A DNA stretch of 48,939 nucleotides. Origin: Escherichia phage vB_EcoS_PHB17. The notes beneath the pieces are model-generated. The model searched no databases, was not told where the DNA came from, and saw only the letters and a program-made list of their open reading frames with translations. Shown piece after piece: positions 15,355 to 34,935 of this stretch (its first letter is position 1; each line of letters begins with the position of its first letter). The stretch lies in sequence record NC_054892.1; one strand, given 5' to 3'. The position numbers and the translations under genes were made by a program.

Positions 15355-15373
15355 GTTTAACAAAAAGTGCTAT
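15355..15373 (-). promoter_or_regulatory. conserved motif copy, reverse orientation
   Basis: TTAACAAAAAGTGCTAT on plus strand between paralog 2 and major capsid genes. Confidence 0.4.
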
Positions 15374-15419
15374 CATTGGGCTGTTGATTGAAAACAGCCA
15401 CTTTTAAGGAGAATTAGCA

Positions 15420-16391
15420 ATGACTGATAAAACCAAAAAGTACGATGAATTTGATGCTTCCATTGTTTCCGCCCACCTGCAAGCGCAGGGTGTGAAAGCT
15501 GACGCATCCGATATGGGTATTTGGACGGCGCAGGAGCTACACAAAATCCGCTCTACCGCATACGACAAAGAATACCCTGTAGGCTCCGCGCTTCGCGTGT
15601 TCCCTGTTACTAATGAACTTAGCGACACGGATAAAACTTTTGAATACCAGACCTTTGATAAAGTTGGTTACGCAAAAATTATCGCTGACTATACCGACGA
15701 CCTGCCAACTGTAGACGCGCTTATGTCTACTGAGTTTGGTAAAGTGTTCCGCCTTGGTAATGCGTTCCTGATTTCCATTGACGAAATCAAAGCAGGTCAA
15801 CGAACTGGTAAGAGCCTGAGCAACCGCAAAGCAAACGCAGCGCAGAGCGCACACGATCACCTTGTTAATCACTTGGTGTTCAAAGGTTCCAAGCCGCACA
15901 AAATTGTGTCAGTGTTTGACCATCCGAACATCACCAAAGTTGTTGCGGCGGAAAAATGGTATGACGCAGGAACCAAAACCAAACGCGCGGAACAGGCTTA
16001 CAACGATCTGACTGATGCGCTGGAAGTGCTGGAAACCCAAACTGACGGGCAGCACCGAGCAACTCACATTCTGATCCCGCCGTCCGTCCGTAAAGTTCTT
16101 ATGGTTCGTATGCCTGAAACCACCGAAAGCTATCTTGATTATTTCATGAAGCAGAACGGCGGTATTACCATTGAAGCAATCGCGGAACTGGAAGATTACG
16201 ACGGTAACGGCAACAAGGGCGTACTGGTCTATGAAAAAGACCCGATGAATATGTCTATTGAAATTCCAGAAGCGTTTAACATGCTTCCGGCGCAGCCTAA
16301 AGACCTGCATTTCAAAGTGCCTTGCACCTCAAAATGCACTGGCCTGACAATTTATCGCCCATTAACTATTGTGTTAATCACTGGCGTGTAA
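15420..16391 (+). CDS. major capsid protein (323 aa)
   Basis: AAGGAG RBS; size and position in head module; followed by terminator. Confidence 0.75.
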   Translation: MTDKTKKYDEFDASIVSAHLQAQGVKADASDMGIWTAQELHKIRSTAYDKEYPVGSALRVFPVTNELSDTDKTFEYQTFDKVGYAKIIADYTDDLPTVDALMSTEFGKVFRLGNAFLISIDEIKAGQRTGKSLSNRKANAAQSAHDHLVNHLVFKGSKPHKIVSVFDHPNITKVVAAEKWYDAGTKTKRAEQAYNDLTDALEVLETQTDGQHRATHILIPPSVRKVLMVRMPETTESYLDYFMKQNGGITIEAIAELEDYDGNGNKGVLVYEKDPMNMSIEIPEAFNMLPAQPKDLHFKVPCTSKCTGLTIYRPLTIVLITGV

Positions 16392-16398
16392 TAATATT

Positions 16399-16424
16399 GG
16401 GGAATCCTTCTGGGTTCCCCTTTT
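16399..16424 (+). terminator. rho-independent terminator-like hairpin
   Basis: GGGGAATCC..GGGTTCCCC stem (1 mismatch) plus TTTT after major capsid gene. Confidence 0.55.
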
Positions 16425-16442
16425 ACTTATGGAGATTAAAAA

Positions 16443-16715
16443 ATGGCTAAAGAAAAAATTGTTGTGCTTTCCAATGTTGGCGTTTGCTCTATTCACTTCA
16501 AAGGTGATCGCTATCTGCCAGGTGATGAAATGGAAATTGCAGAAAAAGACCTTGCCAACAAAGGCATTGAATCGCTAATTCATCGCGGCGACCTGGTAAT
16601 CAAAGACGATTCCACCGCAACCAATGAAATCAAAGATCGCGTAGAGAAGCAGCGCAAGAAAGACCCCAAAGAGGGCAAGAGCCGAAAAGAATTAGAGGAC
16701 GGCGGCGAGTTTTAA
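16443..16715 (+). CDS. hypothetical structural protein (90 aa)
   Basis: ORF between capsid and connector genes. Confidence 0.4.
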   Translation: MAKEKIVVLSNVGVCSIHFKGDRYLPGDEMEIAEKDLANKGIESLIHRGDLVIKDDSTATNEIKDRVEKQRKKDPKEGKSRKELEDGGEF

Positions 16716-16719
16716 ACCC

Positions 16720-16742
16720 TGGGGCGCTAATAGCGCCCTTTG
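16720..16742 (+). terminator. weak terminator-like hairpin
   Basis: GGGCGCT-AATA-AGCGCCC with only 3 T. Confidence 0.35.
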
Positions 16743-16763
16743 TCATATCTGGAGGAAGTGAAA

Positions 16764-17165
16764 ATGATTGATGATGTAATCCAGCAAATCCAGCGCCTAG
16801 CGCCACCGATGAAACAGATTGATCCCGACTTGCTTGTTGTGTGGATTGAACTGGCGGAGGAATTCGTTTGCGAGAAGCGATTTAAAGACGCTTACCCCAA
16901 AGCTGTTGCGCTCTATACGTTGCACTTAATGACGCTTGACGGAGCAATGAAACAGGAAGGTGAAAGCATTGATTCTTACTCTTTCCGTGTTGCGTCATTC
17001 TCCCTGAGCGGTGAGTTTTCGCAGACATTTGATCGCGTATCTTCCGACACATCCGGCAAAGATATCAGGCAGACGCCGTGGGGGAAAATGTTTGAAACCT
17101 TGAACCGGAAGAAAGGCGGCGGTTTTGGCCTTGTTTCTGGTTTGCGTAGCCGGAGGAACTGCTAA
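16764..17165 (+). CDS. putative head-tail connector protein (133 aa)
   Basis: ATG 16764 after GGAGG; position between capsid and tail genes. Confidence 0.5.
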
Positions 17166-17536
17166 TGAATTATGCAAATATTGCGCGAATGGCTACAAAC
17201 GGGATCGCATTTTTCAGTGATAAAGATGGCGAGTTTAAGCTAATAACGCAGCGCGGAGGCGTTGATATCGTTGGCGGCGTCGAGGTTGAAAAGCCGGAAA
17301 TATCAACGACAATCAAAGGGCTTGTGCGTTCACCGCGCACGCGCGAGGTTGACGGAGAAACAATCCGCGTTACTGATAAATTGGGCGTTTTCAACAATGA
17401 AGTTGAGATCCTAAACGGGCAGCATATAGAGATTGACGGCGAGCGCTACGTTATCGTTGAGGCTAGACCAATCAGGCAAACAAGCACAACGGTTGCATAC
17501 CGTCCGATAATGCGGAGGATTGCGGTTCATGGCTAA
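17165..17536 (+). CDS. putative head-tail joining protein (123 aa)
   Basis: Overlapping start; position. Confidence 0.45.
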   Translation: MNYANIARMATNGIAFFSDKDGEFKLITQRGGVDIVGGVEVEKPEISTTIKGLVRSPRTREVDGETIRVTDKLGVFNNEVEILNGQHIEIDGERYVIVEARPIRQTSTTVAYRPIMRRIAVHG

Positions 17537-17969
17537 CTACAAGATCCGGCAATTTGAGGAAACAGTTGATAAATGGATAGAGGCCGCTGGTGACGGCATG
17601 GTTGATTGCATAGAGATATTTGGGGGTAAGGTTCAAACCGCGCTAGTTAATGGCTCACCAGTCGATACAGGCCGATTTAAAGGCAACTGGCAAGTCACAG
17701 CAAACAAAGTGCCTTTGTATGCACTCAATCAGTACGACAAAGACGGGAGCAAAACCATTGCAGAGGGTAAACGGGCGCTTTATGCCATTATGCGTGGAGG
17801 CGGCGCGGTTCGCTCTATTCACTTTTCAAACATGCTTATTTACGCAAATTCTCTTGAGTACGGGCATTCTAAGCAAGCTACCGCTGGCGTTGTGGGTATC
17901 GTTGCAGTAAGATTGCGATCATTCATGGCGGAAGCAATAAAAGAGTCGAGGATAAAAAATGCACTATGA
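17529..17969 (+). CDS. putative tail completion protein (146 aa)
   Basis: ATG 17529 after GGAGGA; position. Confidence 0.5.
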   Translation: MANYKIRQFEETVDKWIEAAGDGMVDCIEIFGGKVQTALVNGSPVDTGRFKGNWQVTANKVPLYALNQYDKDGSKTIAEGKRALYAIMRGGGAVRSIHFSNMLIYANSLEYGHSKQATAGVVGIVAVRLRSFMAEAIKESRIKNAL

Positions 17970-18360
17970 GCTAATGTTAGCGGCGCGTAAGGCGCTGGCG
18001 GAGCAGTACGAGCGGCGTTACCCAATAGCTTACGAAAACGTTGAATTTGTACCTCCCGCCGATGGTTCTCAATGGCTGGCGTTTCACTATAAAGAAGTCG
18101 ATACAGCTTACCTTTCCCTTGATCGCAAATGCCGATCATTTATCGGGATGGTTCAGGTAAACATTGTGTTTGCTCCTGGTTCCGGCACTGACAAGGCGCG
18201 GCGACTGGCAAAAGATATTGCTGATTTCTTTGAAGATGGTAAAATGCTAGACGTTGGTTATATATTCGAGGGCGGAGAAGTTCGACCAATTCAAAAGAGT
18301 GAAACAGGCTGGCTTGTTCCGGTTCGTTTCAGTGTTAGAGTAGAAGAAAAGAGGATCTAA
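17959..18360 (+). CDS. putative tail terminator protein (133 aa)
   Basis: Position immediately upstream of major tail protein. Confidence 0.45.
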   Translation: MHYELMLAARKALAEQYERRYPIAYENVEFVPPADGSQWLAFHYKEVDTAYLSLDRKCRSFIGMVQVNIVFAPGSGTDKARRLAKDIADFFEDGKMLDVGYIFEGGEVRPIQKSETGWLVPVRFSVRVEEKRI

Positions 18361-18362
18361 TT

Positions 18363-19022
18363 ATGCACCTTCCTAACGGTTCACAAATTTTTATTGAAAG
18401 CACGCGAGCGGCAGAAAAAGAAGTAACTGCCATTACCAATGCAAAGGAACCAGTTGCAAGCATTTCAGACACCGAAGGTCTGGCAAAGGGCGATATTGTG
18501 ATCGTTGTTGCTTCCACCTGGGGAAAGATGCTTGATCGCGTTCTACGAATCAAAGATGTACAGGAAAACCAGAGCGTAACTCTTGATGGTATCGACACAA
18601 CAGATACTAACGTTTTTCCGGCTGGCGCAACTGCAAGCATTGCGAAAATCACCGCGTGGACTGAGATCCCATGTGTTCAGGATCTTTCGCAGGACGGCGG
18701 CGAACAACAGTTTTACACTTACCAGTGTTTGTCCGACGATCAGGAGCAGCAGATCCCGACCTACAAGAGCGCTGTTTCTATGACTTACACTTTTGCGCAC
18801 GAATACGACAACGCAATTTACCCGCTGTTGCGTAAAGCCGATGAATCAGGCGAAGTAACCGCGTTGCGTATGTACGTACCGAAAGCAAAAGAAATGCGCA
18901 TGTGGGCTGGTGTTCTCTCTTTCAACGAGATCCCACAAACCGCAGTTAACGAGATGGAAACCGTTTCCATCTCTTGCTCCCTTAAAGGGCGCTTTACTTT
19001 CCTTCCTGCAACGCAGGGTTAA
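18363..19022 (+). CDS. major tail protein (219 aa)
   Basis: AAGAGG RBS; followed by the strongest terminator in the window then the chaperone genes. Confidence 0.7.
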   Translation: MHLPNGSQIFIESTRAAEKEVTAITNAKEPVASISDTEGLAKGDIVIVVASTWGKMLDRVLRIKDVQENQSVTLDGIDTTDTNVFPAGATASIAKITAWTEIPCVQDLSQDGGEQQFYTYQCLSDDQEQQIPTYKSAVSMTYTFAHEYDNAIYPLLRKADESGEVTALRMYVPKAKEMRMWAGVLSFNEIPQTAVNEMETVSISCSLKGRFTFLPATQG

Positions 19023-19024
19023 CC

Positions 19025-19050
19025 AAAAGGGGCATTGCGCCCCTTTTTTT
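19025..19050 (+). terminator. rho-independent terminator
   Basis: GGGGC-ATTGC-GCCCC flanked by A4 and T7, after major tail protein gene. Confidence 0.85.
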
Positions 19051-19089
19051 ATTGCTGTAGAATCATCCTACCAAAACAAACCAAATCGC

Positions 19090-19108
19090 TTTTAACAAAA
19101 AGTGCTAT
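19090..19108 (-). promoter_or_regulatory. conserved motif copy, reverse orientation
   Basis: TTTTAACAAAAAGTGCTAT on plus strand between major tail terminator and chaperone gene. Confidence 0.4.
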
Positions 19109-19124
19109 TCATGGAGAAATCAAA

Positions 19125-19442
19125 ATGTCTAAATTCAAACTCACCCTTGCCCCGCTTCCAAACTTCAAACTTCCGGTTAAATTTGTAATGCCAGATGGTA
19201 ACGAAGGTTCGATCCTGTTTACGGTTCGCCACCTGAAAGCAAAAGAAGTGCAAGCGATGTATGAATCCGAAAGCGTAGTTACTGATTCTGAATTTATCAT
19301 GAAACTGGCTACTGGTTGGGATCTGGAGGAAGAATTTAACGAGGAGAATGCAAAAACCCTTGTTGAGCTTTACCCTGGTGCGGCGCTTGCCCTGACTGGT
19401 TCCTATCTTTCAGCGCTGGCAGGTCAACGCGTAAAAAACTAA
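19125..19442 (+). CDS. tail assembly chaperone (G-like, 105 aa)
   Basis: ATG 19125 after GGAGAAA; ends with slippery A AAA AAC directly before stop. Confidence 0.75.
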   Translation: MSKFKLTLAPLPNFKLPVKFVMPDGNEGSILFTVRHLKAKEVQAMYESESVVTDSEFIMKLATGWDLEEEFNEENAKTLVELYPGAALALTGSYLSALAGQRVKN

Positions 19443-19756
19443 AACGGGCGGTTTATCTGTTTTACCAGAAGCCGCCCACAGATGCAGAGCTTGAGGCCGT
19501 AGGTTTAACCCGCGCTGATTACGAAGGTGAGGAGCCTCCTGAGATTATCTTTGATGAAAGCATGATGCAATCATGGGATATATTTTGCGCTATGCAAACT
19601 CAATGGCGATCCGCTGGTGCTGGTGCTTACGGCTTTGATTACAATGTTTTGCCTATGTTGTTCAAAATCTATAAAATAGAAGATGAAGAAATGGCATTGA
19701 ATGACTTGCGAATCATGGAAAGCAAAGCGCTTGAAATGATGCACGCGAGCAAATAA
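19125..19756 (+). CDS. tail assembly chaperone G-T fusion made by -1 programmed frameshift
   Basis: Heptamer A AAA AAC at 19433-19439; the -1 frame is open from 19367 to 19756. Confidence 0.6.
19433..19439 (+). other. -1 ribosomal frameshift slippery heptamer AAAAAAC
   Basis: X XXY YYZ in zero frame of chaperone gene, 1 codon before its stop. Confidence 0.65.
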
Positions 19757-19757
19757 C

Positions 19758-19781
19758 AAAGCGCCTACGGGCGCTTTTTTC
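19758..19781 (+). terminator. rho-independent terminator-like hairpin
   Basis: GCGCC-TACG-GGCGC plus T6 between frameshifted chaperone and tape measure genes. Confidence 0.7.
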
Positions 19782-19798
19782 ATATCGGAGGAATAGTT

Positions 19799-22489
19799 AT
19801 GGCGGAACAATACGCGGGAATTTCGTTAGGCGTTGACGTTTCACAAGTCAATAACGCCGTAAAATCCTTGCAGCAGTTCAAACAGGCAAACCACGACGCA
19901 GCAAAAAGCGTTGAGGGCTTTGTTGATCAGGAACAAGTTGCAAAGCAGCGCTCGAAAGAGCTTGCACAAGAGTTGGCAAAACAGCGCAAGGAATTTCAAA
20001 ACATCCAAAACGCGATTGACCCAACGGCGGCTAAAATGGATCGCTTGCGCCAGGCGTCCAAGCAATTAGATAGCCTTTGGAAAAAAGGCATTGTGCCTGA
20101 TAAAGATTTCTTTCAGTTGGGGGAAATCCTTGAGGCTCAAGAATCAAAGCTGCAACGAAACAGAAAGGCGCTAACAGAGGAAGGGCGCGCGGCGCTTGAG
20201 GAGTCAAAGCAGAAAGCCAGGGCAGCAGCAGAGGCGCAAAAATTCATTGCGGCTCTTGAGGCGCAAGCGGCGGCGGCTGGAAAGACTCAAGCCGAACTAA
20301 CGGAAATGAAAGCGGCTCAATTGGGCGTAAGCGCACAGGCAGCGCCATTTATCGCGCAGATGCGAGCGCAGGAAAAGGAAGTTGAAAAGTTAGGAATCTC
20401 AATGGGGCAGTATCGCCAGGCTATGCGAATGCTTCCGGCGCAGATCACAGACGTTGCAACTTCACTTGCTGGCGGTATGCCGATTTGGTTAGTGGCAATC
20501 CAGCAGGGTGGACAGATTAAGGATTCTTTTGGCGGTCTTGTTCCGATGTTCAAGGCGCTTGCAACATTCATCACGCCTTTCAATGTTGGTCTTGCGGCGC
20601 TGGTTGGTACGTTGGGTTATCTGACTTACAACGCGTACAGTTCTAAAAAGGCACTCGATGAGGTATCAAAAACCGTTCAGGATGCAACGGGGCTTTCCGG
20701 CGAGTTCGCGGAAAAGATTTCGTTAGGTGTTCAGGCGTTAGCAGACGCGAGCGGCAAGAGCGCAGATGAGATCGCAAAGGCTTACATTTCCACGAAAGAC
20801 GGCGCACAGGAAGCGATTGAAAAGCTGGTTAACGTTGGCTTTAGCTATGACGAAGCGCGGGAGAAGGTGGAGCAATATAAAAATGCTTCCAGCTTTGTGA
20901 CGCTAAACAATGAGATTGCTGATCATATGAACAAGGTGCTTGAATTGGGTGATTCCTGGTTTGAGGTGCTCAAGAAGAAAAAAGAGTACATTTCACCTAC
21001 TGGCGGCGGCGGTGGCTCCCTGGCTGACAAAGAGTTAGGCCACGTAAACAAGGCTCTTGTTTTTGCGAAACAGACGCACGCCGACATTGCAAAGATCGTG
21101 AAAGACAGCAACGTTGATTTTGCAAAGCGTGCTGGCGAGATTGACAAAACAAACCTTTCCCTAAACCGCTTGCGTGCAGCACAGGAAGCACTAAACAAAG
21201 CGATTGAGGATGAAAAATATGTTGCTCAATCTTCAGACAAGGAGCTAAAGAAAAAGGCGGCTGAAAACGTAGCGTTGCGCCGGAAAGAGCTTGAGGAGTT
21301 ACAGAAACTTGAGCAGAAGAAAGGCAAGACCAAAACGCAGGGCGGGATCACGAAAAGCCCAACAGAACAGCTTGATAAAGAGTTGTACGTTTTGAAAGCG
21401 CAGTTAGAAACGCTGAAAGAGCATCGCACTGTTAACGATGTGATTTCGCGCCAGCGCCAAGCGTTGTGGAGTGTTGAAAAGCAGATCCAGATCTTGCAGG
21501 AAGCGCAAAGCAAACGCGGCCTAACCGCAGCAGAGAAAAAGCTATTGGCGGAACAGCAAAGCGTGCTGGAGTTGTCAAAGCAAAAAGCGGAGTTGGGCGA
21601 TCAAATTTTGATTCAGGAGCGCAAAAACAAACTTGAGCAAAATTCAGTCGATTTTATCCGCGAGACTACCGCAGCGATTGAGGAGCTAAACCTGAAACAA
21701 CAGGGCATGACGGATCAGCAAATTCAGCGCGAGCTTGAGTTGCAAAAAATCCGGTCTGATTACCTTGCGAAAGGCGGAAGCGTTGATGATACAGCGTTGC
21801 AGGACATGATCGCGAAACGCAAGGAGTATTTCGAAATGGAGGATCAGTTACAAGGCAACTGGCTTGCTGGAGCTAAAAAGGCGTTTGCCGATTACGGGCA
21901 GGAAGCAACCAACATGTACGCCAATGTTAACGAAGTCGCTACGGCTGGCCTGAATGGTTTATCGTCGTTAATGACTGACTTCCTGACTACCGGAAAAGCC
22001 AGCTTTAAAGATTTTGCAAGTAGCATCATTAAAATGATTGTTCAGATGATCGCTAAGATGGCAATCTTTAACGCTATTTCCGGCGCGATGGGTGGCAAAA
22101 CATTCTCGTTTTCTGGACTGGCTAAAGGTTATGCTGGAGGGGGTTACACTGGTGATGGCGGAAAGTATGATCCGGCTGGCGTGGTTCACAAAGGTGAATT
22201 TGTATTCACCAAAGAGGCAACACAGAGGATCGGAGCCAAAAACCTTTACCGCTTGATGCGTGGCTACGCTAACGGCGGCAGTGTTGGCGGTTCGGCTCAA
22301 ACGAGAGGCGCGTCGGTTGGCAGTGTTGGATCTCAATTCAATTTCGGTGATATCATGGTTGACGTGAACAACGGCAACGACCCGCGAGGAATGGAAACAG
22401 GGATCAAGATGATTTTCACTGAAATGATTCAACGGGCGTGCTCGCAGGGCGGCGAGGTATATAACTTTGTTAATAGTAAGAGGGGGTAA
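19799..22489 (+). CDS. tail tape measure protein (896 aa)
   Basis: Long coiled-coil-rich ORF after the chaperone pair; Gly-rich C-terminal region. Confidence 0.85.
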   Translation: MAEQYAGISLGVDVSQVNNAVKSLQQFKQANHDAAKSVEGFVDQEQVAKQRSKELAQELAKQRKEFQNIQNAIDPTAAKMDRLRQASKQLDSLWKKGIVPDKDFFQLGEILEAQESKLQRNRKALTEEGRAALEESKQKARAAAEAQKFIAALEAQAAAAGKTQAELTEMKAAQLGVSAQAAPFIAQMRAQEKEVEKLGISMGQYRQAMRMLPAQITDVATSLAGGMPIWLVAIQQGGQIKDSFGGLVPMFKALATFITPFNVGLAALVGTLGYLTYNAYSSKKALDEVSKTVQDATGLSGEFAEKISLGVQALADASGKSADEIAKAYISTKDGAQEAIEKLVNVGFSYDEAREKVEQYKNASSFVTLNNEIADHMNKVLELGDSWFEVLKKKKEYISPTGGGGGSLADKELGHVNKALVFAKQTHADIAKIVKDSNVDFAKRAGEIDKTNLSLNRLRAAQEALNKAIEDEKYVAQSSDKELKKKAAENVALRRKELEELQKLEQKKGKTKTQGGITKSPTEQLDKELYVLKAQLETLKEHRTVNDVISRQRQALWSVEKQIQILQEAQSKRGLTAAEKKLLAEQQSVLELSKQKAELGDQILIQERKNKLEQNSVDFIRETTAAIEELNLKQQGMTDQQIQRELELQKIRSDYLAKGGSVDDTALQDMIAKRKEYFEMEDQLQGNWLAGAKKAFADYGQEATNMYANVNEVATAGLNGLSSLMTDFLTTGKASFKDFASSIIKMIVQMIAKMAIFNAISGAMGGKTFSFSGLAKGYAGGGYTGDGGKYDPAGVVHKGEFVFTKEATQRIGAKNLYRLMRGYANGGSVGGSAQTRGASVGSVGSQFNFGDIMVDVNNGNDPRGMETGIKMIFTEMIQRACSQGGEVYNFVNSKRG

Positions 22490-22491
22490 TA

Positions 22492-22845
22492 ATGGCGGCG
22501 CTTGATGAATTTACATGGTGTACTCAAATTCAAAGTAGCGGCGGCGCAATGACCACGACGAACAACGACAGGGAGGTTGTTTTCGGAAATGGTTACACGC
22601 AAGTTGCATCGTCTGGATTCAATACGGTGCGGCGTGAGTTCTCTATTGCTTACGTTGGACTTGATTACAAAGAAGTGATCGCGTTCATGAATAGCCATAG
22701 GCTCAAGCCGTTTTTGTGGATTACGCCGGACGGCTCACCAGGGCTTTTCCGTGTTAAGTCTGGAAGCGTCGCAGCAACGCCGCTTTCGTCAACCGTTCAG
22801 GAAGTCAAAGCGACTTTCACGGAGCAATTCACCAGCATGAAGTAA
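22492..22845 (+). CDS. minor tail protein (lambda M-like, 117 aa)
   Basis: Size and position after tape measure. Confidence 0.7.
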   Translation: MAALDEFTWCTQIQSSGGAMTTTNNDREVVFGNGYTQVASSGFNTVRREFSIAYVGLDYKEVIAFMNSHRLKPFLWITPDGSPGLFRVKSGSVAATPLSSTVQEVKATFTEQFTSMK

Positions 22846-22847
22846 TC

Positions 22848-22873
22848 AAAGCCGCCTTTGTGCGGCTTTTTTA
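22848..22873 (+). terminator. rho-independent terminator
   Basis: AGCCGC-CTTTGT-GCGGCT plus T6. Confidence 0.8.
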
Positions 22874-22912
22874 TTGGTGCTATAATGCGCACTCAAAAGA
22901 GGAGAAAACGAC

Positions 22913-23668
22913 ATGGCTATAAACTTGAATAAGGATTTCGCCAACTGCTTACAAAGCCTTTACCCTGGCGAGATCATCACACTTGTTGAGGTTGACGGCA
23001 CAAAGTTTGGTGCAAACGTCTACCGATTCCATGCAGAGAATTTGCAGTATACGGCGGAAGAATTAATGATCGCTAAAGAAACTGGCGTTCTACCGTCGAA
23101 AGACATTACTTTCCAGGGTGAGGTATACGGGGCGCGGCCTTTCGGCATTACCGGAATCAGCTTCACCAGTAACGGCAAAGCAGATAAACCACAGTTGACG
23201 CTTTCTAATCTTGATAGCCAGGTTAGCGCGATGATTCGCACATACAATGGCATGATGCAAGCAAAGGTGACAATATGGATCACTTCCGCAGATCTGATGC
23301 AGCCAGACGGAAGCGTTGCCGATGGAGCTTATCGAAAACTGGTTTACTACATTGAGCGCCCGAATTACTGCAATCAGTCAATCGCTCGATTCGATCTCAC
23401 ATCTCCTTATGATATGGATGGAATCATGATCCCGCCGCGCATATCGCAGAGTGTTTGTTATTGGGCGCAACGTGGCTGGTATCGTTCCGGCAAAGGATGC
23501 GCGTATAATGGATCGCGAATGTTCGACAAAGACAACAACCCCGTAACCGATCCAGCGCAGGATTATTGCGCAGGAACAGCGACGTCTTGCAAGTTGCGTT
23601 TTGGTGCGGAGAATGAAATTGATTTCGGCGGTTGCGCCGTTGCTTCACTGTTGAGGAAAAACCAATGA
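22913..23668 (+). CDS. minor tail protein (lambda L-like, 251 aa)
   Basis: Size and position; Cys-rich C-terminus. Confidence 0.7.
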   Translation: MAINLNKDFANCLQSLYPGEIITLVEVDGTKFGANVYRFHAENLQYTAEELMIAKETGVLPSKDITFQGEVYGARPFGITGISFTSNGKADKPQLTLSNLDSQVSAMIRTYNGMMQAKVTIWITSADLMQPDGSVADGAYRKLVYYIERPNYCNQSIARFDLTSPYDMDGIMIPPRISQSVCYWAQRGWYRSGKGCAYNGSRMFDKDNNPVTDPAQDYCAGTATSCKLRFGAENEIDFGGCAVASLLRKNQ

Positions 23669-24390
23669 TTAACGCAAAAATAAAACTTGAAATTATGCGG
23701 CACGCTCAAGACGTTTACCCCCATGAATGTTGCGGCGTGGTTACTCAAAAAAGCAGAGTGCAAAAATACCACAGGATCGATAATGTTCACGCAGACCCTG
23801 AAAATCATTTTGAAATGGATGCGTCAGAATACGCACAGGCGCTTTATAGCGGGGAGCTAATCGCGGTAGTGCATTCACACACTGGCGACGGTGCAACGAC
23901 GCTACCGAGCGCCCACGACACTTGCATTTGTGATGAAATGGGGGTTACGTGGATTATCGTTTCTCTACCAGAGGGAGATATGCGTTTTGTTGAACCGGAA
24001 TCAAGGCCGCTGACTGGTCGCCCCTGGTCGCTTGGTTCATATGATTGTTGGGGTTTGGTTATGGCCTGGCATAAAGAACAAGGCGTGATCCTGAATGATT
24101 TCCGTAAACCTTACGAGTGGTGGAAGCCGGAACACGGCGAGAACCTCTATCAAGATAATTATTTGAAAGAGGGTTTTATCCCTACTGGCAATGAGCCGCA
24201 ACCTGGCGATATGGTGATCATGCAGTTGCAAGCGCCAGTGTGGAACCATGCAGGAATTTACCTGGGTAACAATCAGATATTGCACCACGCATACGGAAAG
24301 TTATCACGCACGGATATTTATTCCGGATGGTATCAAGAGCACACAGTTATGATTTGCAGACATAAGGATCTCAAATATGGAAACAGTTAA
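23665..24390 (+). CDS. tail assembly protein (lambda K-like; JAB/MPN plus NlpC/P60 domains, 241 aa)
   Basis: HECCGVV ... HSHTGDGATTLPSAHD metalloprotease motif, then Cys-His hydrolase region. Confidence 0.8.
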   Translation: MINAKIKLEIMRHAQDVYPHECCGVVTQKSRVQKYHRIDNVHADPENHFEMDASEYAQALYSGELIAVVHSHTGDGATTLPSAHDTCICDEMGVTWIIVSLPEGDMRFVEPESRPLTGRPWSLGSYDCWGLVMAWHKEQGVILNDFRKPYEWWKPEHGENLYQDNYLKEGFIPTGNEPQPGDMVIMQLQAPVWNHAGIYLGNNQILHHAYGKLSRTDIYSGWYQEHTVMICRHKDLKYGNS

Positions 24391-24976
24391 AAAAATCAAA
24401 CTTTCCGGCTCCCTTGGGCGTCGCTTTGGCGTTTTCCATCACTACGCTGTTGATAGTTTTCCAGAGGCAATCCGAGCGCTATCAAGCCAGGTTGAAGGAT
24501 TCAAAGACTACATGCAAAGCGAAGTGGGATCGCGTATGAAGTACGCAATCTTTGTTGATGGCGTCAACGTTGGCGAGCATAATGATAAAGCATGGCAATG
24601 CGGCAAAGAGATTAGGATTTTACCGATCCCGACAGGCTCAAAATCTGGCGGCTTGTTCCAGGTTGTTTTGGGTGCTGCAATTATGGCTACCGCTTTCTTT
24701 ACTGGCGGCGCATCACTGGCGGCGATGGGCGCGTTTTCCTCCTCCGCTTTCATGATGGGCGGCGCAATGGTATTGGGTGGAGCTATGCAAATGATTTCAC
24801 CGCAGCAAGGAGGCTCAATGATGGAAATGCAGAGCGCAGAAAACAAACCATCATACGCTTTCGGCGGCGCAGTCAATACAACGGCAGCAGGTTATCCGAT
24901 CCCGCTCCCGTTTGGCCTGAGAACAAACGGCGGTGCTGTATGGAGCGCCGGAAGTTATGCAGAGGACAAAGTTTAA
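24377..24976 (+). CDS. tail assembly protein (lambda I-like, 199 aa)
   Basis: Position after K-like gene; Gly/Ala-rich hydrophobic C-terminal half. Confidence 0.7.
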   Translation: METVKKIKLSGSLGRRFGVFHHYAVDSFPEAIRALSSQVEGFKDYMQSEVGSRMKYAIFVDGVNVGEHNDKAWQCGKEIRILPIPTGSKSGGLFQVVLGAAIMATAFFTGGASLAAMGAFSSSAFMMGGAMVLGGAMQMISPQQGGSMMEMQSAENKPSYAFGGAVNTTAAGYPIPLPFGLRTNGGAVWSAGSYAEDKV

Positions 24977-24981
24977 TTCTT

Positions 24982-25006
24982 ACCCCGCCTTGCGCGGGGT
25001 TTTTTA
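24982..25006 (+). terminator. rho-independent terminator
   Basis: CCCCGC-CTTGC-GCGGGG plus T6. Confidence 0.8.
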
Positions 25007-25054
25007 CGTCCGTATAATGGGTGAACCGATAAACAGCACAAAAGGTTAAAACAC

Positions 25055-28000
25055 ATGACAAAAAATGTGATAAGCGGCAGTAAGGGCGGCTCCTCAAAAC
25101 CTTACACACCAAAGGAAATGGAAGATAACCTAATCTCCATTAACAAAATCAAAGTTTTGTTGGCTGTTTCAGATGGTGAGTGCGATCCTAATTTCTCACT
25201 GAAAGATCTGTATTTGAATGATGTTCCGGTGATGAATGAGGATGGTTCATTGAACTATCAAGGCGTGACCGCAGAGTTTCGACCAGGCACGCAAGATCAG
25301 CCATATATCCAGGGTTTCACAGACACAGCAAGCGAAATAACCGTTGCGCGTGACATTACCACTACAACGCCTTTTGTAATTCCAGTTACAAACCGCAACC
25401 TTTCTGCAATCAGAATTAAAATGCTGATGCCGCAGGGCGTTAAGGTTGAGAGTAACGGCGACCGCGTAGGCGTTGAAGTAAAATACAAAGTTGAAATGGC
25501 TGTTGATGGCGGAAGCTATAAAGAAGTTTTAGCCGACACATTCACAGGCAAAACAACAAGCGGATATGATCGCAGTCGTCGAATTGACTTACCAGAATTC
25601 AACGATCAAGTTTTGTTGCGCGTTAGTCGTGTAACGCCTGACAGCACAACTGATCGCGTTGTTGATGGAATCAGGATTCAGAGCTATGCGGAAGTAATCG
25701 ACGCGAAGTTTCGTTATCCGCTGACTGGTTTAGTTTACGTTGAATTTGATTCCGAGCTATTCCCGAATCAGATCCCTAACATTTCTATCAAGAAGAAATG
25801 GAAGATAATCAACGTTCCGAGCAACTACGATCCAGAATCGCGCACGTATAGCGGCACATGGAATGGCACATGGAAAAAGGCATGGACAAACAACCCTGCT
25901 TTCATTCTGTATGATTTGATCACCAATCAGCGCTATGGACTAGATCAAAGGGAGTTGGGAATTCCACTGGACAAGTGGAGCATTTACGAGGCCGCGCAGT
26001 ATTGCGATCAGATGGTTCCAGATGGAAAGGGCGGAACGGAACCGCGCTACCTTTGCGACGTTGTTATTCAGAGCCAGATTGAAGCCTATCAGCTTGTTCG
26101 CGACATTTGCTCTATATTCCGTGGCATGACGTTTTGGAACGGCGAAAGCCTTTCGATTGTGGTTGATAGACCGCGCGAGCCGTCTTACATCTTCACAAAC
26201 GACAACGTTGTTAATGGTGATTTTAGCTACACTTTCGCCAGCGAAAAGACGATGTACACGCAATGCAACGTGACATTCGACGATGAGCAAAACATGTACC
26301 AACAGGACGTTGAGGGCGTTTTTGATGTAGAGGCTTCATTACGTTTCGGGCATAACCCAACGAGCATTACAGCCATTGGATGCACTCGACGCAGCGAGGC
26401 AAACCGCCGTGGGCGCTGGATTCTGAAAACCAACTTGCGCAGCACAACGGTTAACTTTGCAACTGGTCTGGAGGGCATGATCCCATCTATCGGGGATGTG
26501 ATCGCGATTGCGGATAACTTCTGGAGCAGCAACTTAACGCTGAATTTATCAGGTCGTTTAATGGAGGTTTCCGGTTTACAGGTTTTCGTTCCGTTTAAGG
26601 TTGATGCACGCGCTGGTGATTTCATCGTGGTTAACAAGCCAGATGGCAAGCCAGTAAAGCGCACCATATCAAGGGTTAGTGCAGACGGTAAAACGTTAGA
26701 GTTAAACGTTGGGTTTGGTTTTGACGTTCAGCCTGACACCGTGTTTGCTATCGACCGCACTGATATTGCATTGCAACAGTATGTTGTAACAACCATCACC
26801 AGGGGCGATAACGAGGAGGAATTCACCTACTCTATAACGGCTGTTGAATACGATCCGAACAAGTACGATGAAATTGATTATGGCGTGAACATTGACGACC
26901 GCCCAACAAGCATTGTGCAACCTGACGTTATGGCAGCACCGGAAAACGTTGTTGTGTCGTCATACTCGCGAATCGTGCAGGGCTTGAGCGTTGAAACGAT
27001 GCACATTAGTTGGGATAAAGTGCCTTACGCATCGCTGTATGAGGTGCAATGGCGCAAGGATAATGGCAACTGGCATAACGTACCGCAGACAGCCAACAAG
27101 GAAACAGAGGTTGAAGGTATTTATGCGGGGGTTTATCACGTTCGCGTGCGTTCAGTTTCGGCGGCTGGTTCGGCTTCTCCCTGGTCTGCGATTGTCACCG
27201 CTTCTCTGACTGGTAAAGTTGGCGAGCCTGGCAAACCGATAAACCTTACGGCGTCAGATAATGAGGTTTTCGGAATTCGTATTAAATGGGGTATGCCAGA
27301 AGGTGCAACCGATACGGCTTACGTTGAATTGCAGCAAGCGCCTAATGCTGGTGATTTACCAGCAGAAGATCAAGCGTCGCTGTTGTCTTTGATTCCGTAC
27401 CCACAGCACGAATATTGGCACAGCATTTTGCCAGCAGGTTTTATCAACTGGTATCGTGTGCGATCTGTTGACAAAATCGGCAACGTTTCCGGCTGGACTG
27501 ACTTTGTGCGCGGAATGGCTTCAACTGAGCTTGATGATATTTTAGGCGATATTTTAGACGATATCTGGAATTCACCAGGCGGCGAGGCAATCAAGGAAAG
27601 CGCGATTGATAACGCGAACAAGATCAAGGATCAGGCGCAAAGCATCATTCATAACGCGCTCGCAAATGATGCGGATATTAAATGGACGCGCAAAGAGAAC
27701 GGCAAGCGTAAAGCGGAATATGGTCACGCACTGGAGTTAATCGCCAATGAAACAGAGGCGCGAGTAACAGCCATTGAGGAACTAAAGGCAAGCATTGGTG
27801 ACGATATTCAAGGACAGATCACAACCATCAAGGAAGCGGTTGCAAATGAGGAGGAGGCGCGAGTAAAAGCAGTTCAAAACCTTGATGCGAAATTTACGAA
27901 AGAGGTTGAAGGTGTTAGGACTGAAACCGCCGCCAGTATCGGCAGGGTTGACCAGGCGATCACGAATGAAGCAGAGGCAAGGGCGCAAGCCGTTAGCTCA

Positions 28001-29955: not shown

Positions 29956-30013
29956 GTTATCGCCTCCTATCTGTTAATCAATGCCGTAACTATAACACCA
30001 AACGGCGCGGCGG

Positions 30014-30031
30014 TTTAGCAAAAAGTGCTAT
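30014..30031 (-). promoter_or_regulatory. conserved motif copy upstream of minus-strand operon
   Basis: Reverse complement ATAGCACTTTTTGCTAAA; TATAGT about 22 nt downstream on minus strand, then AGGAGG and ATG. Confidence 0.5.
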
Positions 30032-30146
30032 TTGTTTTCTTTTGTTCCAGCGTGTTCATGAATTTGCGGAGGCGTAAATTTAGCTCAAAAAATCGCCATC
30101 CAGCGAGCAATAAGCATACAGTAAATATTACTATACACATGAAAAT

Positions 30147-30402: not shown

Positions 30403-30430
30403 TTGACTAAATACACAAATTGGCTAGAAT
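30403..30430 (+). promoter_or_regulatory. sigma70-like promoter TTGACT-N16-TAGAAT
   Basis: Hexamers with 16-nt spacer about 30 nt upstream of exonuclease start. Confidence 0.5.
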
Positions 30431-30458
30431 TCTGTTAAAACAACACGGAGAGCATGAA

Positions 30459-31517: not shown

Positions 31518-31536
31518 ACAGCACAAATAGCTAAAC
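31518..31536 (+). promoter_or_regulatory. conserved motif variant ACAGCACAAATAGCTAAAC
   Basis: Directly after TAA stop of exonuclease; hairpin ACGGGG..CCCCGT containing TGATATAAT. Confidence 0.45.
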
Positions 31537-31591
31537 AAATGAAATACGGGGTGATATAATTCATCCCGTAAGTTAACCAGAGGAATCTAAT

Positions 31592-32245
31592 ATGAAACTG
31601 TCAGAAAAGTTTGATGAAGTATTACCAGCATTGCATAAAGCACGTAGCCAATTTGTTAAGGTCAAGAAAGATCGACAAAACAGCCACCTTAAAAACAAAT
31701 ATGCAACGCTCGATTCCGTTCTTGACGCTGTTACGCCAGCACTAACGGAAAACAAATTAATGATCATGCAGGATTCCGAGAAGGTGGATAATGCTTTACG
31801 AGTTGAAACAACCGTCATACACATTTCTGGTCAGTGGGCTAAATTTTACTTTGATATTCCAATTGTCAAAAACGACCCTCAAGGCGTAGGCTCCGCATTC
31901 ACTTACGGGCGACGCTACGCATTAGCCGCCGCGTTTGGTTTGAGCCAGGCAGACGACGACGCACAAATTGCAGTTAAAACGGCGCAGGATTGGAAAAAAG
32001 ATCTTGATAAGTGCGATAACGTTACTGACTTGCAGGATGTGTTTAAAACAGCGTACAAGGCCAGTGACGCAGCAAGCCGCGTAATCATCAAAGAGCATTA
32101 CGACACGCGCAAAGCATCGCTAGAAATTGGCACGGCGCGAGGGTTTAGCCCCGCAACACCAAAGCAAAACGTTGCTAAATCTGAAAAGGTTGAACCGGAA
32201 CCGAAAAAAGCGGTAGAATCGCAGTCAATCACCAACTTTGAATAA
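31592..32245 (+). CDS. erf: Erf-like single-strand annealing protein (217 aa)
   Basis: [14 protein letters not shown] and [12 protein letters not shown] blocks typical of Erf family. Confidence 0.75.
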
Positions 32246-32285
32246 TTAACCAGGGGCGGAAACTCCCCGTTTAGAGGATCATGAA

Positions 32286-32705
32286 ATGCCGCATATTATT
32301 ACTGGCGAGTTACGCAAAGAGCCTTACACAAAAGAGGGGCAAAACAATTCCGGCGCATACAAAATGTACATCGTCGAACTATCAGAAAGCATCAAAGACC
32401 GCCAGACAAACGAGCGAGTTTATACCAATTACAGCGCCACATTCTTTGCATCAAGCGATGCAATGCGCGGTTGGTACGATGAGGCGTTACAGGCCGGAAA
32501 GGTGATTAGCGTTTCATCTGAGGCGCTCAAAATCAATCAGCGTGAGCATAACGGGCAAACCTATATCACGTTACAGATGGAGCAACCGCGTTTAGTGTTC
32601 AGTCAGCGCGGAGCCGGATCGCCGCATAAATCAGGCCAACAACAAAGCCAGCCGCAGCGCCAGCCGTCACCACAACAGAATTTCGACGACGATATTCCTT
32701 TCTGA
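32286..32705 (+). CDS. ssb: single-stranded DNA-binding protein (139 aa)
   Basis: Q/P-rich tail ending DDDIPF. Confidence 0.8.
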   Translation: MPHIITGELRKEPYTKEGQNNSGAYKMYIVELSESIKDRQTNERVYTNYSATFFASSDAMRGWYDEALQAGKVISVSSEALKINQREHNGQTYITLQMEQPRLVFSQRGAGSPHKSGQQQSQPQRQPSPQQNFDDDIPF

Positions 32706-32715
32706 TTGGCAGGAA

Positions 32716-32748
32716 AAAGAAAACCCCGCATTGCGGGGTTTTTTATTA
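32716..32748. terminator. bidirectional rho-independent terminator
   Basis: AAAACCCCGC-ATT-GCGGGGTTTTTT between convergent SSB and tail fiber genes. Confidence 0.8.
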
Positions 32749-34899
32749 CTTATTGACAAGTTGAGAAACAATGGCTTTTAACTCCTCAACTTCTTTCTCA
32801 AGGTTTGCGATCCTTTCCTTGTTCGCTTCGTCACGCGCACGCAATGCCTTAATCGCTGCAAGACCATCCAAAAGCATTGGCGTCTGGTCAAGGTGATAAT
32901 AATCTCCGACTTTCCAGACGTATTCTTTATCGATCTTCATAATCTGCTGACTAATGACGCCGCGACGGGCGCTACGATCAGGCGCGTCATCCTTGAATCT
33001 GAACAGCTTAAACTCCATTCGATTCACGTTATCTAACGCACCCTCAAGGTTAAGGTTACCTTTAATGTCCTTCAGGGTCTCATCTGATACAGCCGATGTT
33101 GTCACCTTAACCCAATCTCGCCACGTTGTAGACAGATCATCGCCAGCGCGTGAGTAAAGTTCGTTTGTGACCTTGTTCCAACAAAGCTGCCCGGTATAGT
33201 TACCAGAAACGCGATCAGGGCCTCGACCGAAAGAAGTTAAGATCCCGAAACCGCTAAAAGGAATTCCGTCGGCGGTTGTTGTTGCGTTAGTAAAAGTCCT
33301 AAACTCCGTATTTCTTCGGGAGTTGGCGTTCAACTGACCAGCGGCGCTAGTGAAGTAAGCAACGTTAACCATCATTTCACCGCTAATCTGAGCAAACGGA
33401 ATTCTTATTTGCCCGGCTTTGTTGCCATCCCTTCTTCTTGCAATAAGAGATGGAACAGCACCAGACTGCGGGCCGAGTTCGAACATCGCCCTTGAGAATA
33501 AATCGGTCTCCGCCCTATCGGTATTATCAATAATAAAGGCGGGATATCCACCATGTTCAGCAACAAAATCACCTCCCTTCGCCCTGACGTTGCCATCATT
33601 AATATTAAGATCGCCGCCGCCATAAATAAGAGTCCCGGCGCTAATAGTCATCTTTCCTTTAGCGATCGTCGAACTTCCTTCCGCTACGTAGATCCTTGCG
33701 TCATAGTCATTCCCAGTCCCAGATGAATGGAAGTCGATAAAAGCAGGCGTTTTTGTCGTCACGCTTCCAAGTTCAACTCCAGTATCGCCAGTGTTTTGGC
33801 TTCCTACCTGAAGGCCGCCAGTTAAAATATATTGTGAACCAGTCCAGCTATTGGAAGTATTTAATAACGGGATAGTGCCGCCAGACGTTCCGATATTATA
33901 AGTTGATGCGCTGCCAAGACCTAAATTTGTGCGTGACAATGCCTTATCAGCAACGTCTGAAAGGTTATTCTCTTTCTGCATCAACTTGCTTGTTTCGAAA
34001 GAATCCGCCAAGCGTTGAGCTCGATCAGCTTCGTTTTTCGCAGTAGTCGCAGAACCAGCGGCGGCAGTTGCAGAACCAGCGGCGGCAGTCTTAGACGCAT
34101 CAGCGGATTGCGCAGATTGCGCGGCCTGATTCTTTGACGTGTTTGCGGCTGTTTCGCTCGCCTTTGCTTTTGTCTCGCTGGTCTTAGAGTTAGTCTCGCT
34201 TGTCTTTGCGGCTGTTGCAGATGCGGCGGCGGCTGTCTGGCTTGCCCTTGCTGCATTCTCTGACGCTTTCGAGTTTGTTTCACTGGTTTTCGCGGCTGTC
34301 TGGCTTGCCTTTGCTGCATTCTCTGACGCTTTGGAGTTTGTTTCACTGGTCTTTGCGGCGGCTTGTGATGCAGCGGCGGCGATCTGGCTTGCGCTTGCTG
34401 AATCCTGGCTAACCTTCGAGGCGTCCTGGCTTTTCTTCGCTTCCGTTTGGCTTGTCTTTGCTGCAACCTCTGACGCTTTGGCGTTGGTGGCGGCTGTTTC
34501 AGCTTTGGCGGCATTTTGCTTTGTTGATTCGTCCAGCGCTTCCAGTTTTTTCCAGTCGAACGTTTTAAGGAATTCAACAAATTCCTCATACATCGTTTCT
34601 TTCCCCTGGTAGTATCGCAGCGTTTCAGCAACATCTTGTGCCAGGCCATCAACGGTGATTGAGTCATGCAGCAGGATCACATAATCAGTGCGATCAATAA
34701 CAGCACCTCCCGTAGCGGTTGCACGGATTGACGTGTCGCTAATCACTTCTGAAATTGTTGCGTATGTTGCTGGGCTTGTTGCAAACACGATTGTTGCACC
34801 TGAGCGAATCAGGGTTAACTGATCGCGCCACGATGTGTTATAGCCTGTAATGTAGCCTTGAGCGTCCATTGACGCTTGCCCCTTACGATAAATAGACAT
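32746..34899 (-). CDS. tail fiber protein with C-terminal intramolecular chaperone domain (717 aa)
   Basis: 21-aa Ala/Lys/Thr/Ser repeats, Gly-rich middle, C-terminal self-cleaving chaperone-like domain; AGGAG RBS. Confidence 0.75.
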   Translation of the reverse strand: MSIYRKGQASMDAQGYITGYNTSWRDQLTLIRSGATIVFATSPATYATISEVISDTSIRATATGGAVIDRTDYVILLHDSITVDGLAQDVAETLRYYQGKETMYEEFVEFLKTFDWKKLEALDESTKQNAAKAETAATNAKASEVAAKTSQTEAKKSQDASKVSQDSASASQIAAAASQAAAKTSETNSKASENAAKASQTAAKTSETNSKASENAARASQTAAAASATAAKTSETNSKTSETKAKASETAANTSKNQAAQSAQSADASKTAAAGSATAAAGSATTAKNEADRAQRLADSFETSKLMQKENNLSDVADKALSRTNLGLGSASTYNIGTSGGTIPLLNTSNSWTGSQYILTGGLQVGSQNTGDTGVELGSVTTKTPAFIDFHSSGTGNDYDARIYVAEGSSTIAKGKMTISAGTLIYGGGDLNINDGNVRAKGGDFVAEHGGYPAFIIDNTDRAETDLFSRAMFELGPQSGAVPSLIARRRDGNKAGQIRIPFAQISGEMMVNVAYFTSAAGQLNANSRRNTEFRTFTNATTTADGIPFSGFGILTSFGRGPDRVSGNYTGQLCWNKVTNELYSRAGDDLSTTWRDWVKVTTSAVSDETLKDIKGNLNLEGALDNVNRMEFKLFRFKDDAPDRSARRGVISQQIMKIDKEYVWKVGDYYHLDQTPMLLDGLAAIKALRARDEANKERIANLEKEVEELKAIVSQLVNK
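34140..34360. repeat. 63-bp tandem repeats (about 3.5 copies) inside tail fiber gene
   Basis: Near-identical units starting at 34231 and 34294 with diverged flanking copies; encode 21-aa repeat AAKTSETNSKASENAAKASQT. Confidence 0.75.
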
Positions 34900-34914
34900 T
34901 TGTAAATCTCCTAT

Positions 34915-34935
34915 ATAGCACGAATTGTTAATGAC
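34915..34935 (+). promoter_or_regulatory. conserved motif copy ATAGCACGAATTGTTAATGAC
   Basis: Plus-oriented copy 16 nt from start of minus-strand tail fiber gene; second partial copy at 34946-34960. Confidence 0.4.

Follow-up and report, generated by a model that had tools for sequence, protein, structure and literature searches.

The DNA of Escherichia phage vB_EcoS_PHB17 (NC_054892.1; 48,939 nt, here called the window as a whole) contains 24 copies of an asymmetric 20-bp box with the consensus ATAGCAC-N5-TG(C/T)TAAAAC. The box matches the marbox, the site of the host activators MarA, SoxS and Rob, and most copies precede a -10 element at a fixed distance. Three copies are reversed relative to the genes that they adjoin, namely the major capsid gene, the tail assembly chaperone gene and the minus-strand tail fibre gene. 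Taking the evidence together, we lean towards the reading that the box is a class II marbox read by host activators and that the reversed copies are placed at late promoters of the sigma70 type, and we hold this to be somewhat more probable than its opposite. What is shown here is the match in sequence, the spacing, the conservation and the synteny; the starts, the late promoters, the protein that reads the box and any regulatory effect are inferred.

The repeat, its promoter module and the host marbox

The phage of the window is a T1-like siphophage of the Drexlerviridae, and its nearest relative over a 6-kb stretch is Escherichia phage PaulSarasin (~84% identity). With a 17-mer of the motif, 13 sites at up to three mismatches were found in the whole window against 0.33 expected. 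A 20-bp scoring matrix derived from 16 canonical copies gave bimodal scores over the same DNA; 24 boxes reached at least 18 bits, and the best remaining site scored ~10 bits. By this count T1 has 21 boxes, TLS 20 and the Klebsiella phage KLPN1 17.

Judged by its sequence, the motif is the repeat of TLS and T1. In TLS it was described as a 21-nt direct repeat with the consensus aaATAGCACnnnTTGnTAAAA, present in ~18-21 copies per genome and ~76 nt upstream of start codons, and similar repeats were noted in T1, Rtp and Rogue1 (PMC11447400). The TLS repeat DR7 (negative strand, 15044-15024, next to terminator T35; PMC11447400) is syntenic with the capsid copy of the window, DR8 with the copy at 25033, and DR10 and DR11 with those at 36023 and 36464. 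An author of the T1 genome study is among the co-authors of that paper, which treats neither the reversal of DR7 nor the fixed distance of 18 bp to the -10 element nor the marbox match. A literature search for a T1 transcriptome, or for a link between the marbox and T1-type repeats, found nothing beyond PMC11447400. Thus, the repeat itself was already known and its match to the marbox is new here. An earlier note on this DNA had missed both the identity with the T1-family repeat and the marbox match, as well as the position of the capsid copy within the putative capsid promoter.

We pooled 71 boxes with a -10 element nearby from four genera (the window, T1, TLS and KLPN1). The -10 element stood exactly 18 bp from the box in 56 cases; 8 boxes had a spacing of 17 bp and 3 one of 19 bp. 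In ~18 of the 24 window copies a -10 element is found 17-19 bp (mostly 18 bp) 3' of the box, which takes the place of the -35 element, and only 0.8% of the hexamers in the window score as high as these -10 elements. The order of the module is the box, 18 bp, the -10 element (often with TGn before it), ~7 bp, a CATCGAAAC-like stretch, a ribosome-binding site and the ATG. No TTGACA-like -35 hexamer was detected at 16-18 bp from the -10 element in the canonical modules. TTGCTA inside the box was rejected as a -35 element because its spacer to the -10 element would be 22 bp, and a sigma54 promoter (TGGCAC-N5-TTGC) was also rejected because the box has AG instead of GG and its GC is two bases too near. 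Since the spacing to the -10 element is constant, the box behaves as an upstream promoter element of fixed position, from about -51 to -32 with its center at about -41.

The TLS authors proposed that the repeats are stoperators, enhancer sites or UP elements, and listed their function as an open question (PMC11447400, 2024). Following them, the box might be contacted by polymerase alone, as a UP-like element or an unusual -35 element, or might be a stoperator; among all the explanations weighed here this is the least probable. The right side of the box is A/T-rich and the box lies upstream of the -35 position, but the invariant G/C positions (GCAC and G13) are unlike a UP element, and TTGCTA is too far from the -10 element, as mentioned above. 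Stoperators act through a phage repressor and lie at no fixed distance from a -10 element, and T1-like phages are virulent. The earlier note had also considered a site that works in either orientation. For the canonical function this idea found no support, as the box is asymmetric, with a fixed orientation and a fixed spacing.

The published consensus for MarA, SoxS and Rob is AYNGCACNNWNNRYYAAAYN, and that from chromatin immunoprecipitation sequencing (ChIP-seq) is gcannwwntgnnaaa. When the window was searched with the marbox AYNGCACNNWNNRYYAAAY at no more than one mismatch, 24 sites were obtained against 1.1 expected. Exact matches to gcannwwntgnnaaa numbered 19 against 1.3 expected and fell on the same sites as those of the first consensus; the fibre copy is one base off the ChIP-seq consensus (AAT). 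All the defined marbox positions except position 19 (A1, G4-C7, W10, R13 and Y14-A18, with Y2 at 97%) are satisfied in at least 93% of the 71 boxes.

The phage matrix was also run over 153 kb of E. coli (Escherichia coli) K-12 near known targets (305,850 positions). The top two hits were ACAGCACTGAATGTCAAAAC by micF (16.0 bits) and ATGCCACGTTTTGCTAAATC by marRAB (15.8 bits), and the third hit scored 11.3 bits. The micF and mar marboxes are the DNAs of the Rob-micF and MarA-mar crystal structures; the phage box is identical to the former at 16 of 20 positions and to the latter at 15-16 of 20. The layout of micF (box, 18 bp, TAGAAT, 7 bp, annotated start) is identical to that of the phage modules. 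At class II Mar/Sox/Rob promoters a forward marbox covers the -35 position with its center near -41, and no -35 element is recognisable. The phage modules share the forward orientation, the 18 bp to the -10 element, the center near -41 and the lack of a -35 element. Every class II feature that a sequence can reveal is present in the canonical modules, in which the starts are predicted, and the co-oriented copies look like class II promoters of the Rob/MarA/SoxS type. The earlier note had observed that the motif is co-oriented with the downstream gene in early regions, which holds for every canonical copy in the non-structural regions.

Reversed copies at putative late promoters

The three reversed copies reported in the earlier note were all recovered, far above chance, and the genes named as their neighbours are correct: the major capsid gene (start 15420, plus strand), the tail assembly chaperone gene (PF08748; start 19125, plus strand) and the tail fibre gene (34899-32746, minus strand). 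On the plus strand, 15357-15373 and 19092-19108 both read TTAACAAAAAGTGCTAT, and at 34915-34931 the sequence is ATAGCACGAATTGTTAA (TTAACAATTCGTGCTAT on the fibre-gene strand). The scores are 27.7 bits for the capsid copy, 30.3 bits for the chaperone copy and 18.2 bits for the fibre copy. A fourth copy, at 36464, is likewise reversed relative to a neighbour, the regulator gene on the minus strand, which has its ATG at a distance of 13 nt. The copies at late genes are not uniformly reversed, since those at 11055 (portal gene) and 25033 (gpJ-like gene) are forward. In either orientation, the late-gene boxes are situated in or just 3' of putative sigma70-type promoters that are nested with terminators (11055, 15354, 19089, 25033 and 34915, and also 36464 with respect to the regulator promoter). 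The regulatory difference between early and late genes suggested by the earlier note is plausible to the extent that canonical copies occupy an activating position and reversed ones are found in or just 3' of these late promoters, and it is supported in outline. It is the position relative to the -10 element, more than the orientation relative to the gene, that separates canonical from non-canonical copies. A class I marbox (reverse, at -53 to -85, upstream of the -35 element) was rejected for the reversed copies because the ATG follows the box by only 16, 15 and 46 nt at the chaperone, fibre and capsid copies, respectively, leaving no room for a -35 element, a -10 element and a leader.

In the nested arrangements a -35 or -10 element falls in a terminator loop, a predicted start lies in the 5' arm of a hairpin, or a perfect -10 element (TGCTATAAT, TATAAT) comes right after a terminator. 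They were found at 11079-11108, 15368-15399, 19025-19063, 22848-22884, 24982-25018 and 35975-36003. This nesting is consistent with the 'transcripton' idea proposed for T1.

The capsid copy, ATAGCACTTTTTGTTAAACG at 15354..15373 on the minus strand, stands between the cement/decoration gene (14833-15336) and the major capsid gene. A putative sigma70 capsid promoter occupies 15349..15376 on the plus strand, with the -35 element TTGCAC (15349-54), a 16-bp spacer and the extended -10 element TGCTATCAT (15368-76), and its start is predicted near 15383. The reversed box coincides with the spacer and with the first half of the -10 element, to which it supplies TG and TAT. In an alignment of the intergenic region, TTGNNN-16 bp-TGnTATNNT is kept in 13 Drexlerviridae phages, six of which have A for the T of TG. 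The promoter was missed by a generic sigma70 scan because its -35 element matches at only 3 of 6 positions. A syntenic box is present in T1, pSf-2, TLS, SP-126, Sazh, PaulSarasin, grams, Samwise, IsaakIselin and LF82-19. Tempevirinae, Tunavirinae and LF82-19 have it intact, and the Webervirus KLPN1 has a degenerate version (12.7 bits). PSKM and JulesPiccard (Braunvirinae) have none; JulesPiccard retains the promoter as TTGCGT-16-TGTTATAAT.

Downstream of the capsid promoter, 15379..15399 on the plus strand folds into the hairpin GGCTGTT-N7-AACAGCC followed by ACTTTT (-10.9 kcal/mol, z = -2.3), and the syntenic hairpin of TLS is annotated as terminator T35 (PMC11447400). It is probably a weak terminator for upstream transcripts, with the predicted capsid start in its 5' arm; upstream transcripts would stop at this hairpin, whereas those from the capsid promoter would escape it. 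No usable minus-strand -10 element was found at 17-19 bp from the capsid box in the compared phages, and therefore this copy is not considered an antisense promoter. MarA bound at -16 to -30 of flgBP2, inside the core promoter, activates by distorting the DNA (PMC12781870). The capsid copy would likewise place a marbox-like site in the spacer of the putative promoter, beside the -10 element and with a core from about -13 to -27; however, flgBP2 is sigma28-dependent and activated, whereas the capsid promoter appears to be of the sigma70 type with an extended -10 element. Because the TG and the first bases of the -10 element fall within the box, occlusion is at least as likely as activation at the capsid promoter, and the simplest expectation is that a protein on this box occludes the extended -10 element.

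The chaperone copy, ATAGCACTTTTTGTTAAAAG at 19089..19108 on the minus strand, is followed at exactly 18 bp by the minus-strand -10 element TAGGAT (19065..19070) with TGG before it, from which a start near 19058 is predicted. The box, the 18-bp spacer and the -10 element thus form a complete module that faces backwards. The -10 element at 18 bp is found in three phages as TAGGAT (window), TAAGAT (T1) and TAGAGT (PaulSarasin). Since these hexamers differ and yet keep T-12, A-11, T-7 and the exact spacing, selection on promoter function is indicated. The antisense transcription considered in the earlier note is accordingly predicted at this copy alone; no usable opposite-strand -10 element accompanies the capsid and fibre copies. 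The minus-strand transcript is predicted to end after ~35 nt at the terminator that follows the major tail gene (19025..19047; -14.5 kcal/mol), which folds on both strands and has UUUU after it on the minus strand. On the plus strand, a putative chaperone promoter at 19035..19063 consists of the -35 element TTGCGC (19035-40) in the loop of this terminator, a 17-bp spacer and the -10 element TAGAAT (19058-63), and the box would lie at about +20 to +39 of it. Seven phages keep the pattern TTGC(G/A)(C/T)-17 bp-TA(G/A)A(A/T)T, among them the ones that lack the box. The box is present in T1 and PaulSarasin, and it is missing together with ~30 bp in TLS, Sazh, Samwise and IsaakIselin (Tlsvirus and Henuseptimavirus). 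As the two -10 elements stand back to back (19058-63 and 19065-70), both promoters cannot be occupied together. The chaperone copy may thus act as a decoy whose activator-dependent promoter would compete with that of the chaperone gene.

The fibre copy, ATAGCACGAATTGTTAATGA at 34915..34934 on the plus strand, is located 15 nt from the fibre ATG and at about +3 to +22 of a putative fibre promoter. Its second half is degenerate, with AAT in place of AAA. On the gene strand the order is the primase terminator (34964..34987, minus strand, read from sequence), the putative extended -10 element TGCTATTAT (34943..34952, minus strand) directly after it, the reversed box, a ribosome-binding site and the ATG. 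The second partial copy that the earlier note had placed at 34946-34960 contains only the 7-nt half-site ATAGCAC, which read on the other strand is this putative extended -10 element, plus TATTG, and it scores -10.4 bits. T1 has ATAGCACGAATTGCTAAGCA at the syntenic site, 3' of TTGCAA-17-TAAAAT, at about -3 to +17, whereas the TLS fibre promoter (TTGCAT-17-CATAAT) has no box. The second half of the fibre box is weak (AAT or AAG), but a 17-bp core is common to the window and T1 despite differing flanks.

These comparisons bear on the idea that the reversed copies are functionless, that is, harmless inverted or decayed leftovers of mobile promoter cassettes produced by recombination. The chaperone copy behaves as a ~30-bp insertion that is present or absent by genus, the fibre copy is weak and missing in TLS, modules seem to move between phages and even into a T4-like phage, and boxes mark gene boundaries with stop codons inside them. 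We nevertheless regard this idea as improbable. The capsid copy is retained across two subfamilies while its flanks diverge, the chaperone copy retains a -10 element at exactly 18 bp in three phages with differing sequences, and the fibre core is common to the window and T1 although the flanks are unlike. In T4-type phages, small early genes have promoter-early stem-loop cassettes on their flanks, which are short and seemingly mobile promoter modules that contain inverted repeats. They have no activator box, so their likeness to the T1-type modules is one of genome organisation only.

Action of the reversed copies at the level of RNA is very improbable. The reversed box in the chaperone and fibre mRNA leaders would pair with forward boxes at the ends of early transcripts and thereby delay translation or trigger cleavage. 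Forward boxes overlap upstream stop codons and hence are transcribed by read-through, the copy at 19092 shares a 19-nt sequence with several forward copies, and it stands 16 nt from the ATG within the predicted leader. However, the capsid copy is upstream of its predicted start, the complementarity stops at the edges of the box, the fixed 18-bp spacing to the -10 element indicates a role at the level of DNA, and a scan of the whole window against Rfam matched no family.

With the box as a marbox, the protein that acts at early promoters would also modulate the late promoters, most likely by holding them down but perhaps by activating them. At the capsid promoter, the bound box would take up the spacer and half of the -10 element. 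At the chaperone promoter, the minus-strand promoter of the inserted backward module would compete with the abutting promoter and yield nothing but the short terminated RNA. At the fibre promoter, a weak box would be bound just downstream of the start.

Candidate readers of the box

According to the preferred reading, Rob, MarA or SoxS of the host (RamA in Klebsiella) would bind the boxes as monomers and recruit sigma70 RNA polymerase as at micF, so that the phage would fire its early and middle promoters with host activators. Since Rob is a direct sensor of signals and needs no prior induction, it is the candidate. That a conserved host protein reads the box seems to us a little better than an even proposition. 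A MarA homologue encoded by the phage was rejected because a tblastn search with MarA against the window gave nothing below E = 4; not every phage protein was scanned for the AraC type.

The competing candidate is the phage's own regulator, a 147-aa protein with a single Cro-like helix-turn-helix (36007..36450, minus strand), which corresponds to T1 gene 23 and TLS gp57. It gave weak matches to Cro, YdaS and NinH, and Foldseek assigned a Cro-like fold to its AlphaFold model (predicted local distance difference test, pLDDT, 85). An AraC fold was rejected for this protein, the only regulator annotated, as the predicted structure is Cro-like. If the box were the operator of this regulator, a dimer would sit on TAGCA-N5-TGCTA, activate middle promoters from about -41 and repress the late promoters and its own from sites within them or 3' of them, and the likeness to the marbox would be a coincidence or mimicry. 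We consider this possible, though on the unlikely side. The half-sites of the dyad are 10 bp apart, the fold is predicted to be a helix-turn-helix of the Cro type, and the regulator is a core gene of the family. Its gene has a consensus sigma70 promoter (P57 in TLS, PMC11447400) and a box 13 nt from its ATG. Such a regulator would yield a classical cascade from immediate-early to middle genes with autoregulation.

The details of the box and the protein fit this explanation less well. Among the 71 boxes, dyad symmetry is 58-100% at positions 2-6/12-16 but 0-21% at the pairs 1/17, 7/11 and 8/10 and in the flanks. G4 is invariant while position 14, its partner, varies between C (41 boxes) and T (29 boxes), exactly the Y of the marbox; C7 is invariant and its partner is never G; and the AAAAC flank has no mirror image. 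The recognition helices differ (SFQTIQQ in the window, SNQTVQG in T1, NLKTVWG in TLS and SIQVVQQ in KLPN1) whereas the boxes are identical. An operator of the regulator would also leave unexplained why micF and mar are the best E. coli matches and why the spacing of the phage modules equals that of micF, and two full modules occur in a T4-like phage as well, which may lack the regulator. Phage lambda provides the model for such a system, since cI at OR2 activates PRM from about -42, where a 17-bp partly symmetric site allows contact with polymerase. The phage box is instead asymmetric at key positions, and the recognition helix of the candidate protein is not conserved. Because the dyad is asymmetric at key positions and the recognition helix varies, a conserved host reader is favoured. 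Residues 12-31 of the regulator, which are predicted to be disordered, contain an invariant basic stretch (DKR..NGNNG..RRG.D..R) that is more conserved than the recognition helix.

Several observations weigh against a host marbox reader. Position 19 is A in 55 of the 71 phage boxes, where the marbox has Y. Host marboxes are far more degenerate than the phage boxes, which amount to ~20 near-identical copies (~30 bits) in 49 kb. The weaker known marboxes of fumC, inaA, sodA and fpr reach no more than -4 to +1 when the phage matrix is applied to them, so that the match to the host rests on mar and micF. The Cro-like regulator adjoins a box and is present in 829 records, as compared with 870 records with the capsid gene, and the box holds the 5-bp dyad TAGCA/TGCTA. 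As for the late promoters, flgBP2 shows that MarA inside a core promoter can activate (PMC12781870), which speaks against repression. If a host protein that acts without induction represses the late promoters, this repression would, moreover, have to be relieved in some way. The generic sigma70 scan of 8000-27999 showed no enrichment (25 vs 22.3) and missed the putative late promoters, for which it is therefore conservation that argues. The chaperone and fibre copies are dispensable, since they are missing in TLS-like genera. Finally, we know of no report of rob, marA or soxS as host factors of T1.

A wider form of the host-reader idea is doubtful: early and middle transcription would run through ~20 class II marboxes of high affinity in each genome, with Rob, MarA or SoxS of the host as the reader, and the late boxes would tie the late genes to the availability of the activator. 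Replicating genomes could then titrate the activator, giving a copy-number timer and coupling phage development to the stress and efflux state of the host.

If host activators do read the box, the phage would offer a clear example of a virulent virus that borrows a stress-response activator of its host for most of its promoters. Phage expression would then be linked to the regulon of TolC and porins, which are receptors for some such phages, and the non-canonical copies at late promoters would have a rationale. The T1-like phages, coliphages and Klebsiella phages alike, form a large family, and several members serve in therapy and in screens of defence systems. The marbox match turns the question on the repeat left open in PMC11447400 into simple experiments, and the nested designs of terminators and promoters help to annotate this phage family.

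Distribution of the modules and further features

Seven canonical forward modules are located at the left end of the window, with boxes at 1526, 2030, 2351, 3638, 4608, 5604 and 6910 (1526..6929, plus strand) and the -10 element exactly 18 bp on. Further canonical modules are at 30012..30031 (minus strand; -10 element TATAGT at 17 bp) and 31518..31537 (plus strand; TATAAT at 17 bp). The boxes at 38959, 40126 and 40433 (38959..40452, plus strand) each have a -10 element at 18 bp, and four canonical modules on the minus strand have box 5' ends at 45410, 47461, 48439 and 48792 (45391..48792). The box at 40433-40452, which is conserved in T1 (40308), lies away from annotated gene starts; as it is remote from a gene start and still has a -10 element, a long leader is implied.

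The remaining copies are less regular. At the end of the large terminase gene, the box at 11055..11074 (plus strand) is followed 4 bp on by TATAAT (11079-84), a terminator (11087-11108) and the portal gene. A weak box (25033..25052, plus strand; 18.6 bits) falls between TATAAT (25013-18) and the ATG of the gpJ-like gene at 25055. A weak intragenic box at 39502-39521 (plus strand) has no -10 element. The box at 36004..36023 (minus strand) covers the stop codon of the regulator gene and has its -10 element, TATCAT, in the loop of the next terminator, ahead of the primase gene; this arrangement is syntenic with DR10/T57 of TLS. The helicase promoter has its box at 36464..36483 (plus strand) and its -10 element TAGTAT at 36502-07. 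The promoter of the divergent regulator gene, with the putative -10 element TATACT, is equivalent to the published P57 of TLS. The -10 elements of the helicase promoter and of the divergent promoter of the regulator and primase genes overlap by 5 bp on opposite strands (~36502-36508). This pair is conserved as TAGTAT/TATACT in the window, TATTAT/TATAAT in T1 and TATGAT/TATCAT in TLS.

In many modules, the stop codon of the upstream gene, including that of the large terminase gene, is within the box as the TAG of ATAGCAC or the TAA of GCTAA. Examples are 1527-1529, 2031-2033, 4609-4611, 5605-5607, 6911-6913, 11056-11058 and 38960-38962 on the plus strand, and 45407-45409 and 36007-36009 on the minus strand. 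Because the stop codon is inside the box, the end of one gene coincides with the beginning of the next promoter. The sequence CATCGAAAC(G/A)AA occurs ~7 nt past the -10 element, at predicted transcript 5' ends (for example at 1576-1587, 2382-2393, 39008-39019 and 40176-40187), and is conserved in the window, T1, TLS, KLPN1 and GuL6; it could be a leader element or a context of the start site. Inverted repeats without a U-tract (GGGGTT...AACCCC, GGAGCA...TGCTCC) are found around or before the -10 element in many modules, as at 1556-1577, 5634-5655 and 6940-6963. Their role may be to stabilise upstream transcripts at the 3' end, or to influence promoter opening.

Buttiauxella phage GuL6, a T4-like myovirus of 178 kb, contains two complete T1-type modules (box, -10 element and CACACATCGAAACGAA) at 19466-19485 and 20004-20023, where they flank the small genes 173-172. 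Their presence in this unrelated phage suggests that the promoter cassettes pass from one phage family to another. Some 20 records that bear the name 'Campylobacter phage' and give Campylobacter jejuni as the host are T1-like and contain the capsid gene, the regulator and the modules, and their host label looks doubtful.

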